From positions 47,167-111,166 of IMG/VR virus record IMGVR_UViG_3300033757_000296: a stretch of DNA of 64,000 nucleotides; one strand, written 5' to 3'. Below the pieces are notes generated by a model. It searched no databases, had not been told where the DNA came from, and saw nothing but the letters and a program-made list of their open reading frames with translations. Positions within the stretch are counted from its first letter, which is position 1; every line of letters starts with the position of its first letter. The position numbers were made by a program, and so were the translations under genes. The DNA comes from a virus (lineage: Duplodnaviria; Caudoviricetes). Positions 46,811-50,207 of this stretch are shown piece by piece.

Positions 46811-47500
46811 TTATTGCCCTTTTAAATGCCAGGGCCTCTGGAGGGTATCACAGTATAGTCGAAATCCTTTTTCCTGTGCGGATATGCAAAAGCCAAAATC
46901 TTCGCCATGGTCGTGATATGAATATTTAACTCCAGAGTCGATGACTTTCCTATGGATTAAATAGCAAGCCCCAGTTACATCTACTTCGATTAATCTATCT
47001 TCGAAATCTTGTTCTAATACTTTATAAAAACCGTTTCTGTTTCGGCGAAGAATGTTATATAAATTAGTTGGTCCCGCATGGTTGTTCCAAATTAGGGCCG
47101 CACAAATATCTTTTTCATGGGATAAAAGTTCGTTTAAAATCTTAGGAGTAAGGAGTATATCGCTGTCCACACTAAAAATATACTCGGATTCAGAATCAAG
47201 CATTGCAAGAAACAAATTACGAGCATCTGCAATACACTTATAATCACGTCCGGGTGCTCTATAATCTTGATAATCATTGTTTAAGGCCACATCCCATATA
47301 CTAATCTTACGGTAATATTTCAAGTATTCTTCCCTAAATGTTTTCAAAATAAAATATGAGTCGTCGTGGCTATTGTTTAATAAAAAGGCGAGGTGAATTT
47401 TGTCTTTAGGGTAATCTAAATTTCTAATACATTCTAAAAAAGAAACAAGGCAGTCCCGAGTCCGTTGCAACGGACACCCAATCATTATGTTAGGTTTCAT
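46811..47500 (-). CDS. GT-A fold glycosyltransferase (GT2-like)
   Basis: FSVDSD DxD motif, TGAC.LI, GEDFGFC. Confidence 0.85.
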   Translation of the reverse strand: MKPNIMIGCPLQRTRDCLVSFLECIRNLDYPKDKIHLAFLLNNSHDDSYFILKTFREEYLKYYRKISIWDVALNNDYQDYRAPGRDYKCIADARNLFLAMLDSESEYIFSVDSDILLTPKILNELLSHEKDICAALIWNNHAGPTNLYNILRRNRNGFYKVLEQDFEDRLIEVDVTGACYLIHRKVIDSGVKYSYHDHGEDFGFCISAQEKGFRLYCDTLQRPWHLKGQ

Positions 47501-48149
47501 ACAATTCTTCTAAAAGCTTTTCGTATAATTCTTTGTTTCGATGCCAATCTTGTTTGCGACTATGATAAAGGTGATAGCATATTCCATCCTCTATTATCGG
47601 GTAGTCTCCAAGAACGTGTTGGATTTTTTTACAGACATATGAATCTTCATAGCCCCATGACTGAAACCTTTCATCATATCCCCCAATTTTGTTAAAAAAC
47701 CGTTTTTTAAAAATTTGAAGTCCACCTGCCATTTTATCCTTTCGGATATCACGATCCATATACCCCCATTTTTCTAATTCACTATAACGATGTGGTTCAC
47801 CATTAACGATTTTTTTACTAATTGGAGGCAAAAGATCCCTAACAATTCCAAATGGAATAACAAACGGAGAAGATTCTAATAATTTTAAGCCTCGCAAAAT
47901 AAGTTCTTTACTAATATAAATATCTGAATCCATAATCAGTAAATTTTCACCAGTTGATTGTCTAACTCCGTGATTTATGCTATGACTACGACAGTAATTA
48001 GGATAATTAGTTGGATCTTTGGCTATAATAAATTCTGCATCTGGAAAAATATCTCTCATATATTTGTTAAGAAATTCGAAGTTTTGTTTTCTTTCTTTTT
48101 CTCCGTTTGGAGTGTAGAGAATTATTATTGAGAGATTCATTTTAACCAA
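47490..48149 (-). CDS. glycosyltransferase (GT2/GT7 galactosyltransferase-like)
   Basis: N.G; IMDSD; GGYDERFQSWGYED; HLYH. Confidence 0.88.
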   Translation of the reverse strand: MVKMNLSIIILYTPNGEKERKQNFEFLNKYMRDIFPDAEFIIAKDPTNYPNYCRSHSINHGVRQSTGENLLIMDSDIYISKELILRGLKLLESSPFVIPFGIVRDLLPPISKKIVNGEPHRYSELEKWGYMDRDIRKDKMAGGLQIFKKRFFNKIGGYDERFQSWGYEDSYVCKKIQHVLGDYPIIEDGICYHLYHSRKQDWHRNKELYEKLLEELYET

Positions 48150-48736
48150 CTCGCGTTCCAGTGGTGCGCGGCATAAGCAATTTTGTTTTTTGGCAGTTGT
48201 TTTAAAAGTTGGGTTTGACCCGGTAGATAAGGGTAAAAAAATTGTTTTGGGAATACTACTATTTCGTCTCGTGGAATTGAACCCGTGAGAAAGGTGGGAC
48301 CAATACGTAAATCGCTTGTTTTTTTTGTCGTACTACGAAGAGCCCGTGGTATTCGGCGAATTACGTTCATTATATATTTGTGTTTTGGTTCTGCTCCAAT
48401 AAATCCGCCACAAATGATTTGGTGATTTTCGCTTGACGCAAATAAGGGTACGTCTTGAATTAGGGGTTCGATGTTTTTGAAGCATTCGAAGTCGGTATCG
48501 ATATAGATTCCTCCAAATTGATAGAGGAGTTCGTAGCGGATTAGGTCAGATTTTTCGCTGTAATTGTTGCATAATGGAAGAAATTGTTCATTAATTAGTT
48601 CGGGAAGGTTGTCCTCGGTCCATGTTTTCATTTCCCAATCTGGATGGTGGTCTAACCAGGTTTGTCCCCATGTTTCTAGTTGTGGGGGCATTGGTTTTCC
48701 GCCGAGCCAGATTCGATGAAATATTTGGGGGATCAT
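48137..48736 (-). CDS. GT32 (Och1-like, DxD) glycosyltransferase
   Basis: MIPQIFHRIW, SDLIRYELLY..GGIYIDTD, GP, HHW..SW. Confidence 0.9.
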   Translation of the reverse strand: MIPQIFHRIWLGGKPMPPQLETWGQTWLDHHPDWEMKTWTEDNLPELINEQFLPLCNNYSEKSDLIRYELLYQFGGIYIDTDFECFKNIEPLIQDVPLFASSENHQIICGGFIGAEPKHKYIMNVIRRIPRALRSTTKKTSDLRIGPTFLTGSIPRDEIVVFPKQFFYPYLPGQTQLLKQLPKNKIAYAAHHWNASWLK

Positions 48737-49404
48737 TTTTTTATTTCCAGAAACCATTCGTCGTGAAATTGTTCCGTCCACTCTTCCCAGTTTTTTTTGT
48801 CTTCTTTGTCCACCCAGGAGCCTTCGAAGTGGTGGAGTCCATATGCAAGTGGGTACTTTTCGCTTTGACCGACTTCTTCTTTTACGCCTGGTGGGATTGG
48901 AAAAAAGTATTCTGGGCCGAAAGTGTATACTTCGTCGAAGCTGAGCATTTTGGTCATATAGACGGGACCGGAAATCACGTTTGGACCATAATCTGAGTTT
49001 TTATCTACGCTTGCTGGTAATGCCTTTATTAATTTTAATACAGATGGATGTTTTGGGGTTGCCCCCATTATTGCGTTCCCAATAACTCCGGTTTGTTCTC
49101 CACAGGAAAAAAATTCTAAATCTTCAATAATTGGTTCGATGTTTTTGAAGCATTCCATGTCCGTATCCACAACGACAGATCCGCGATATAACAGTTCCAG
49201 TTTTAGTATGTCCGCTTTTAGCACAATCCCGGGCACGGAGTCGAATAGTTCCTGGTTGATGAGTGATGGTATATTTTCATCAGTGACCAAGTTGATTTCC
49301 CAATCGGGGTGTAGGTTTTTCCAGGTTTGTATGCAGTACTGGAATTTTTCGGGAAGAGGATTTCCACCTATCCAGACAAAATTAATGATTTTTGGTATCT
49401 TCAT
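48733..49404 (-). CDS. GT32 glycosyltransferase
   Basis: IPKIINFVW, ADILK, VDTD, SGP, HHFEGSW. Confidence 0.9.
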   Translation of the reverse strand: MKIPKIINFVWIGGNPLPEKFQYCIQTWKNLHPDWEINLVTDENIPSLINQELFDSVPGIVLKADILKLELLYRGSVVVDTDMECFKNIEPIIEDLEFFSCGEQTGVIGNAIMGATPKHPSVLKLIKALPASVDKNSDYGPNVISGPVYMTKMLSFDEVYTFGPEYFFPIPPGVKEEVGQSEKYPLAYGLHHFEGSWVDKEDKKNWEEWTEQFHDEWFLEIKK

Positions 49405-49599
49405 TTTTTCAACCTATATATTGCTTGGCTAATATCCCCTGTTTTCCCAACAAACAATCGAACCAGTGTTGGAAAATATTTTTCCATATATTCCCGAACC
49501 GAAACCAACATCCAAAATTTTATCTGTTTTTTGAATATTTTTGAGAATATATTTTAGGGTTACCTCTTTTCTGCCGGCCCCCAAACTTATCCCCCTCAT
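49401..49599 (-). pseudogene. internally deleted class I SAM methyltransferase
   Basis: 56-aa ORF with KILDVGFGSG motif I; a C-terminal-like segment continues in the +1 frame to TGA overlapping the next ATG. Confidence 0.7.
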
Positions 49600-50207
49600 T
49601 CGTTTCCCTCTTCTTTATACCATGATTGAGCAAAATGATGATGAGCAAATTCTCCATTAAATGTCCCCTTTGGGTGGGCAAGAACATACTCGTCATTTAG
49701 AACGTCTGTTAAATAGAAAGGACCACTACGCCAGTTTGTATACGTCCGCGCTTTCTCTTCGAGAGGGAGATTGTTATATGCTTCATATCGATCGGGAAGA
49801 TTGTCTATTATTTTTTTCACTAGTGGGTGCTCGGGAGTACAACCGATTAAACTATTATTAAAAAATTGTGGAATTCCTGGTTGCAGATAATCCGCTTCTT
49901 TACATAAAACCAGTGTTAGTTCTTTTAAAAGTGGTTCGAGATTTTTTAAACACTCATAATCGTAATCAACATATATTCCACCATAAGCGTAAATAAGTTC
50001 ATATCTCAAAATATCAGCTTTTTCAGAATATGTTTGTGCATTATCGAAAAGTTCCTGATTTATGAGCGGAGGAATGTTTGAATCATTCCATATCATATCT
50101 TTCCATCCGGGGTGAAACTTTTTCCAACCCTGTTGGTATTCTAAGAATTCTTGGGGAATTTTATTTGGTCCAACCCAAATGTGATGAAAAATTTTTGGGA
50201 TCTTCAT
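49596..50207 (-). CDS. GT32 glycosyltransferase
   Basis: IPKIFHHIW, ADILRYE...GGIYVDYD, SGP, HHFAQSW. Confidence 0.9.
   Translation of the reverse strand: MKIPKIFHHIWVGPNKIPQEFLEYQQGWKKFHPGWKDMIWNDSNIPPLINQELFDNAQTYSEKADILRYELIYAYGGIYVDYDYECLKNLEPLLKELTLVLCKEADYLQPGIPQFFNNSLIGCTPEHPLVKKIIDNLPDRYEAYNNLPLEEKARTYTNWRSGPFYLTDVLNDEYVLAHPKGTFNGEFAHHHFAQSWYKEEGNE

Follow-up and report, generated by a model that had tools for sequence, protein, structure and literature searches.

A glycosyltransferase cassette between the genes for portal and protease of a PhiF1-like archaeal virus, and its possible role in virion protein glycosylation

To our knowledge, the only tailed viruses in which glycosylation of a virus's own particles has been demonstrated experimentally are mycobacteriophages. 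For three of these, Che8, Corndog, and Myrna, glycosylation of the capsid and tail-tube proteins by the phages' own enzymes is reported, and Che8 gp110 and Corndog gp38 are reported to be essential (Freeman 2023 as cited in PMC12363180); by the same second-hand account, glycosylation of mycobacteriophage particles alters their recognition by antibodies (as cited in PMC12363180). In Corndog, an O-methyltransferase gene and three glycosyltransferase genes lie between the genes for portal and protease, and the gp35–gp38 proteins are not in the virion (PMC4351075). The subject of this work is a block of five glycosyltransferase genes (positions 46811–50207, minus strand) in the corresponding place in a 64,000-nt stretch of viral DNA, positions 47,167–111,166 of IMG/VR record IMGVR_UViG_3300033757_000296, referred to below as the window. 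The window is part of the genome of a large tailed archaeal virus with late genes on the minus strand; it is related to Methanobacterium virus PhiF1, which infects Methanothermobacter, and its large terminase subunit (TerL) is 41.7% identical to PhiF1 ORF13.

Glycosylation of virion proteins is considered the best reading of this cassette, with a probability of roughly 0.55. It is favored by synteny and one family-level homology: the slot between portal and protease is conserved in the clade of PhiF1-like viruses; the same slot is used in Corndog, so that here as in the mycobacteriophage-type system glycosyltransferase genes are embedded among virion structural genes; and one of the enzymes, GT_B, is in the same protein family (phrog_1721) as enzymes of Che8 and Corndog. 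A late-expressed, cytoplasmic cassette of a PhiF1-like Methanobacteriaceae myovirus would then build an oligosaccharide on capsid, cement, or tail proteins during assembly.

Enzymes and gene order of the cassette

The cassette enzymes are designated GT_E, GT_D, GT_C, GT_B, and GT_A in gene order from the portal side. The open reading frames (ORFs) of all five exceed the Pfam curated cut-offs for glycosyltransferase families, and all keep a DxD motif: DYD, DTD, DTD, DSD, and DSD, from GT_E to GT_A.

GT_B (47490–48140, minus strand; 216 aa) is a GT2/GT7C-like, galactosyltransferase-like protein with a WGYED motif in addition to its DSD, matching PF02709 Glyco_transf_7C (40.5 bits) and PF10111 Glyco_tranf_2_2 (28.6 bits); its ORF extends to 48149, with an ATG at 48140. 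It falls in phrog_1721, annotated as “galactosyl transferase” (E 9.7e-18, residues 4–199 on profile positions 2–192 of 232), as a distant member at 27–29% identity. Che8 gp109 and Corndog gp37 match the same family at E 9e-114 and 5e-110, and are found directly by blastp with GT_B as query (1.3e-15 and 1e-14, the former with 29% identity over 152 residues). Of 99 phage records matching GT_B, 90 are mycobacteriophages. For the remaining window enzymes, no counterpart was detected in mycobacteriophages.

GT_E (49596–50207, 203 aa), GT_D (48733–49404, 223 aa), and GT_C (48137–48736, 199 aa), all on the minus strand, are GT32-like, with PF04488 Gly_transf_sug scores of 52.7, 36.7, and 54.0 bits (cut-off 23). 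GT_C has an ATG start at 48736, in an ORF reaching a GTG at 48781. The three proteins are mutually 36–42% identical, and in these paralogs and their relatives the DxD follows an alignable, conserved (A/S)D(I/L)xRYxxLY segment. In a GT32 tree they fall in a single clade, confined to viruses, whose D-type and C-type orthogroups are old: GT_D groups with genes of the related contigs L002, L003, and L005 (support 97/94), and GT_C is orthologous, at 57–60% identity, to the N-terminal domain of GT32::GT7C fusion proteins in L002 and L003. GT_E, without an ortholog in the relatives, forms a singleton branch; its G+C content at third codon positions (GC3) is 0.275. The range across the cassette, 0.23–0.43, fits a mosaic history. 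Since the orthogroups are old, the three paralogs have been long maintained, and presumably differ in specificity.

The GT32 paralogs also give sub-family matches, of 18–31 bits, to the glucosyltransferase domains of TcdA and TcdB, and all cassette proteins appear cytoplasmic and soluble. These features would suit a non-structural target, either host proteins, as for the clostridial-type and Legionella glucosyltransferases, or a free or small-molecule-linked oligosaccharide. The toxin matches are short, however, covering 20–40 residues around the DxD, and are weaker than those to GT32; genes for host takeover are usually early, rather than placed between portal and protease; and several sequential transferases imply the building of a glycan, not the addition of a single inactivating sugar. 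A target of this kind is considered quite improbable.

GT_A (46811–47500, minus strand; 229 aa) matches PF03452 Anp1 at 61.3 bits (cut-off 28.8), over profile positions 20–175 of 263 only, with Glycos_transf_2 just below cut-off. Its DSD, a QGED motif (E200–D201), and a C-terminal histidine (His225) are invariant across 30 homologs. An AlphaFold2 model (mean pLDDT 95) finds GT-A fold matches, the best being the GT1 domain of COLGALT1 (TM 0.81) and the accessory domain of LH3; others include Mnn9 (3zf8, E 4e-12), Mimivirus R699 (E 3e-10), and the teichoic-acid enzymes TarS, TarP, and RmlT (E 1e-8 to 1e-10). Giant-virus GT-A proteins are its top viral fold matches. Members of GT62/Anp1 (the Mnn9/Anp1/Van1 mannosyltransferases) are Golgi type II membrane proteins that extend N-glycan mannan; GT_A, from an archaeal virus, has no membrane segment and is as near to GT2 profiles, so that “Anp1-like” is a better name for it than “GT62 member.”

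A further protein, designated unk210 (46141–46773, minus strand), is a divergent GT2-like GT-A protein recognized from its predicted structure. It has no Pfam, PHROG, or NCBIfam matches; hhalign finds no relation to GT_A, and in a profile search of the PDB the only match was GmaR, at a non-significant E of 0.33. Its AlphaFold2 model is weak (pLDDT 58), with a GT-A-type N-terminal Rossmann half whose top Foldseek matches are GT-A enzymes (E ~0.008), while the model in the ESM Atlas, with a pTM of 0.80, resembles GT2 clusters (TM 0.72–0.83). A homolog on an unrelated viral contig (L031) matches PF00535 above cut-off, at 32.3 bits, and among the relatives unk210 is found together with multi-enzyme cassettes. 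On these models it is a predicted sixth GT2-like member of the cassette, of uncertain activity because the DxD position reads Y-S-D-E.

The genes are tightly packed. The portal stop and GT_E start are 3 nt apart; ATGA stop-start overlaps join GT_E to the methyltransferase stub described next, GT_D to GT_C, and GT_C to GT_B (the latter two with ATGs at 48736 and 48140); and GT_B and GT_A overlap by 11 nt. The sole gap in the cassette is one of 190 nt (49405–49595), between the first and second GT32 genes. It is filled by an ORF of 56 codons (49429–49599, minus strand) whose ATG overlaps the GT_E TGA, and whose peptide carries motif I, and only motif I, of class I methyltransferases, KILDVGFGSGIYG. 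Matches to PCMT and PrmA are weak and below cut-off (E 0.023 and 0.05), and a tblastn comparison of the relatives' methyltransferases with the 190-nt gap gave no significant match, so that motif I and the two sub-threshold Pfam matches are the basis for calling it a remnant. GT_E occupies the place where L002 and L003 have a methyltransferase gene. Because relatives keep an intact methyltransferase in the cassette (L002, L003, and L010), the ORF is read as a decayed gene, probably the stub of this same methyltransferase.

No membrane segment or signal peptide was found in any cassette protein (maximum Kyte-Doolittle 19-residue mean ≤1.11). An earlier note on this DNA, made from the sequence alone, had described five glycosyltransferases without signal peptides, overlapping one another between portal and prohead protease in the late head operon; three were taken to be GT32 paralogs and two to be GT2/GT7-like. 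The number of enzymes, the three paralogs (each above the PF04488 cut-off), and the lack of signal peptides are borne out, and Pfam and PHROG matches verify the flanks. Most junctions do overlap, with GT_E and GT_D separated by the 190-nt gap; of the supposed GT2/GT7-like pair GT_B is one, while GT_A is better described as Anp1/GT62-like; and both the sixth glycosyltransferase-like gene and the methyltransferase stub had been overlooked.

Phage glycosyltransferases are classically DNA-modifying, and two N6/N4 DNA methylases are encoded elsewhere in the window (6474–7292 and 8706–9554). Sugars on the viral DNA, as on the hydroxymethylcytosine of T-even phages, could protect it from restriction or CRISPR. 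T4 DNA glucosyltransferases, however, have the GT-B fold and are encoded by early genes, whereas all cassette enzymes are GT-A and lie in the late head string. Six transferases also exceed the usual need of DNA sugar decoration, and GT_B shares its family with an enzyme of virion-protein glycosylation. The sole ThyA-like gene is a methanogen thymidylate synthase (TIGR03283, 268 bits, cut-off 174.5), the DNA enzymes nearby are the N6/N4 methylases, and no hydroxymethylase or TET-like gene was seen within the window, which is part of the genome. The earlier argument against DNA glycosylation, from late placement and a normal thyA, thus holds within the window, and this alternative is very improbable.

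The portal-to-protease slot in related viruses

Portal-based searches yielded eight viral contigs and one contig from a metagenome-assembled genome (MAG), and a GT_A-based search added two clade members. The MAG contig (L010), from a member of the Methanobacteriaceae, is the only relative found in a cellular genome. A glycosyltransferase is present in the portal-to-protease slot in 11 of 13 related loci; the slot is conserved across PhiF1-like viruses.

The contents of the slot vary. In PhiF1, L006, L007, L017, and L020 it holds GT_A only; in L005, one GT32, one GT7C, and GT_A; in L004, two GT32, two GT7C, and GT_A; in L002 and L003, a methyltransferase, a GT32, a GT32::GT7C fusion, and GT_A; and in L010, a GT32::GT32 fusion, a GT7C, and a methyltransferase, followed by a contig break. 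There are three to five glycosyltransferase genes or domains per slot in L002–L005 and L010. GT_A is found in every clade member whose contig spans that part of the slot, while the other enzymes vary: by gene content GT_A is the putative core member and the remainder are accessory. The fusions GT32::GT7C (L002, L003) and GT32::GT32 (L010) are Rosetta-stone evidence for joint action of the predicted enzymes. The intact methyltransferases of L002, L003, and L010 are 300–350 aa long (L002:8763–9671, L003:8120–9037, L010:13200–14261), and have a C-terminal domain resembling CTP-dependent riboflavin kinase (PF01982, ~25–28 bits).

In the distant relatives L008 and L009 the slot contains only a GIY-YIG homing endonuclease (L008:11346–12014; the same in L009), and another is found at the slot edge in L017 (1125–1904). 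The presence of homing endonucleases in the slot or at its edge suggests that genes are inserted here repeatedly, as at a hot spot.

In all, more than 300 GT_A homologs were found in metagenomes, and homologs are present on 106 viral contigs. Six contigs of unrelated tailed viruses that were examined (L039, L076, L040, L041, L044, and L031) have a GT_A-family gene no more than ~5 kb from genes for portal, protease, capsid, minor head protein, or terminase; further glycosyltransferases often accompany it. In one of these, the siphovirus-like L039, the major head gene is directly followed by a gene (4361–8125) whose 1254-aa product has two GT2 domains and one GT4 domain, and then by the GT_A homolog. 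Two other phages have GT32-like genes immediately upstream of terminase and portal, accompanied by a methyltransferase or by UDP-glucose dehydrogenase.

Among 151 genomes of the host family, the Methanobacteriaceae, GT32 is found in seven, and the only contig with a strong match to GT_A is viral. Judged by homology, the cassette enzymes apparently belong to a virus lineage and were not copied from a pathway common in the hosts.

About 20 bacterial provirus loci (L018–L038) have another arrangement: virion structural gene, GT_A homolog, two glycosyltransferases, integrase. These belong to a conserved, provirus-like element whose PHROG families are mostly of unknown function. A position beside an integrase fits a conversion gene equally well, and it is here that the main rival to virion glycosylation comes in. 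Much as the prophage-encoded TarP acts on wall teichoic acid in Staphylococcus aureus, the cassette might modify a host envelope glycopolymer or lipid-linked glycan from the cytoplasmic side during infection; with the receptor altered, progeny would escape being trapped on debris, or a second infection would be prevented. Consistent with this, the PHROG class of the related families is “moron, auxiliary metabolic gene and host takeover,” and the TarS, TarP, and RmlT enzymes found among the structural matches of GT_A are likewise soluble GT-A enzymes, acting on wall polymers. The cassette of the window, however, is surrounded by head morphogenesis genes and lies neither at a genome end nor next to an integrase, and the constancy of GT_A in the clade members covered there is unlike that of an accessory moron. 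The Methanobacteriaceae genomes are without close homologs marking a host pathway, and the cassette has no membrane component; nor does it encode a flippase, polymerase, oligosaccharyltransferase, or polyprenyl-phosphate primer enzyme. With no hydrophobic segment in its proteins, it also differs from serotype conversion of the Gtr type (GtrA/GtrB/GtrC), which employs a membrane flippase and transferases bound to the membrane. PhiF1, with GT_A in the same slot, is presumably lytic, in which case lysogenic conversion would not apply. Envelope modification is the foremost of the alternatives to virion glycosylation, and is judged unlikely.

Candidate targets and glycan assembly

If the target is the virion, assembly of the glycan may be pictured in three steps. 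GT_A would add the first sugar to the acceptor; it is cast as initiator because it is the sole transferase in PhiF1 and four other relatives. GT_B, the three GT32 paralogs, and possibly unk210 would then extend and branch the glycan from host nucleotide sugars, as suggested by family chemistry: GT2 and GT7 enzymes are inverting, those of GT32 and GT62 retaining. In relatives, the methyltransferase would finally cap the sugars, a step whose gene has decayed to a stub in the window virus.

The acceptor could be the major capsid protein (43390–44226, minus strand), which is of HK97 type (PF25209 Phage_capsid_4, 49.6 bits), or the capsid cement/decoration protein (44232–44651, minus strand; PF22758 Phage_cement, 28.2 bits). 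The capsid protein has a hypervariable Ser/Thr/Gly-rich loop (residues ~139–150) in an otherwise conserved sequence, and its last residue is a Cys (KIT[NG]C or KILNC) in no viruses but the five that have multi-enzyme cassettes. The loop is present also in a relative without a glycosyltransferase, and neither feature tracks GT_A; both are leads, not evidence, for an acceptor.

Several results weigh against virion glycosylation. Nine families of structural proteins were compared among ten relatives, and no terminus had a Ser/Thr-rich tail, whether on capsid, cement, sheath, or connector proteins. When all 33 late proteins were surveyed for Ser/Thr content in windows of 20 residues and for N-x-S/T density, only ordinary Ser/Thr-rich fiber and baseplate proteins stood out. 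Searches of termini, Ser/Thr windows, and the capsid alignment yielded no structural-protein motif tracking glycosyltransferase content, a result that also counts in favor of an envelope target. Acceptor sites in Che8 are reportedly at the C-termini of the capsid and tail-tube proteins; no such site is evident in the window proteins. The GT25 initiating enzyme of the mycobacteriophages (Che8 gp110/Corndog gp38, phrog_854) has no window homolog beyond noise by blastp or phmmer (E ≤1), and no window enzyme has a GT25 Pfam match; if the function is the same as in mycobacteriophages, initiation evolved separately. The good structural matches of GT_A to teichoic-acid enzymes and the provirus loci with integrase, both noted above, belong on this side as well. 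Co-transcription of the cassette with the head genes is predicted from the gene packing.

An acceptor was also sought by way of the best structural matches of GT_A, and this line was dropped, since neither the COLGALT1 GT1 domain nor the LH3 accessory domain is catalytic (PMC12003778).

The earlier proposal of stepwise glycan building on virion proteins has gained partial support from the enzymology, the placement, and the comparison with relatives, set against the missing acceptor motif and the missing GT25 homolog. More tentatively, and as a possibility rather than an expectation, GT_A may found an unrecognized family of protein-directed initiating enzymes in the head modules of archaeal and bacterial tailed viruses, priming in this case a capsid glycan of at least five sugars. 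Were that so, no tailed archaeal virus would have been known before to encode a pathway for glycosylating proteins in the cytoplasm, and the pathway would have arisen independently of the mycobacteriophage system that GT25 primes. Because the methanogen hosts lack antibodies, a sugar coat on the particles would have uses other than immune evasion, for example in stability, resistance to proteases, or adhesion. The range of cassettes, from one enzyme in PhiF1, a cultured virus, to three to six elsewhere, would offer a natural series linking genes to glycan structure.

The genes around the cassette form a late head and tail string, all on the minus strand. It begins with TerL (51491–52975; phrog_2, E 3.9e-19), followed by the portal (50211–51494), which matches portal PHROGs 9232, 12, and 146, with Pfam Phage_portal below cut-off. 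The portal of L004 (9992–11395) has a C-terminal tail that is rich in Pro and Thr and resembles mucin (…TPATQPTTPTTQPKTPATKK); the window portal has no such tail. After the five glycosyltransferase genes come two further ORFs ahead of the protease: unk210 and orf78 (45908–46144), a small protein of 78 aa conserved in L002–L005, L017, and L020, whose sole family signal is a faint match to a transcription-regulator PHROG (E 0.007). The prohead protease (44663–45820; PF04586 Peptidase_S78, 27.8 bits) is fused to a coiled-coil scaffold, its C-terminal half being rich in K, E, and A. Downstream of the cement and capsid genes are connector proteins and then the tail sheath (39106–40707).

Elsewhere in the window are a TnpB/OrfB_IS605 transposon-associated nuclease (1851–2921, plus strand) and a tRNA-Thr gene (3684–3757), the latter between the nuclease ORF and another at 4219–5391 (plus strand). 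In an SNF2-family helicase (9744–12497, plus strand) the SNF2 match is split over residues 146–731, with LAGLIDADG and Hint signals inside, which suggests an intein.

Comparison with described systems

Viruses outside the tailed phages resemble the window virus mainly at the fold level. The crenarchaeal virus STIV and Mimivirus, both with glycosylated particles, also encode GT-A enzymes (A197 and R699, respectively), but these viruses belong to unrelated realms and their enzymes are encoded outside any tailed-virus head operon. TarP, encoded by an S. aureus prophage, and its host counterpart TarS are, like the cassette enzymes, soluble cytoplasmic GT-A enzymes of the GT2 kind, and match GT_A structurally at E ~1e-8. 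Unlike these, they carry C-terminal oligomerization or polymer-binding domains, whereas the window has six minimal catalytic domains; and TarP is encoded by one conversion gene in a temperate phage, whereas the window genes are inside a head gene string.

Among the mycobacteriophages, Che8 (cluster F) is similar in that gp109, of gp108–gp110, is homologous to GT_B and in the same PHROG. The pairing of glycosyltransferase with methyltransferase in L002, L003, and L010 also has a parallel in Che8, where gp108 is a GT2::methyltransferase fusion. It differs in that the genes are at the right genome end, rather than between portal and protease, and in having three enzymes to the window's six.

In Corndog (cluster O), gp35–gp38 share with the window cassette both the slot and the combination of a methyltransferase with several small, soluble GT-A enzymes, and the order in L002 and L003 resembles that of Corndog: methyltransferase, glycosyltransferase, GT7C-like enzyme, last glycosyltransferase, protease. 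The differences are that Corndog has the GT25/phrog_854 initiator gp38 where the window has GT32 paralogs and the Anp1/GT62-like enzyme; that the host of the window virus is an archaeon with a pseudomurein wall, and its virion that of a myovirus; and that the methyltransferase of the window is only a stub. The window-type cassette is made up mostly of different enzyme families, with a conserved slot and fast-changing content. That the arrangement in a methanogen virus should match that of mycobacteriophages suggests that sugar-coating of particles may be old and widespread among tailed viruses.

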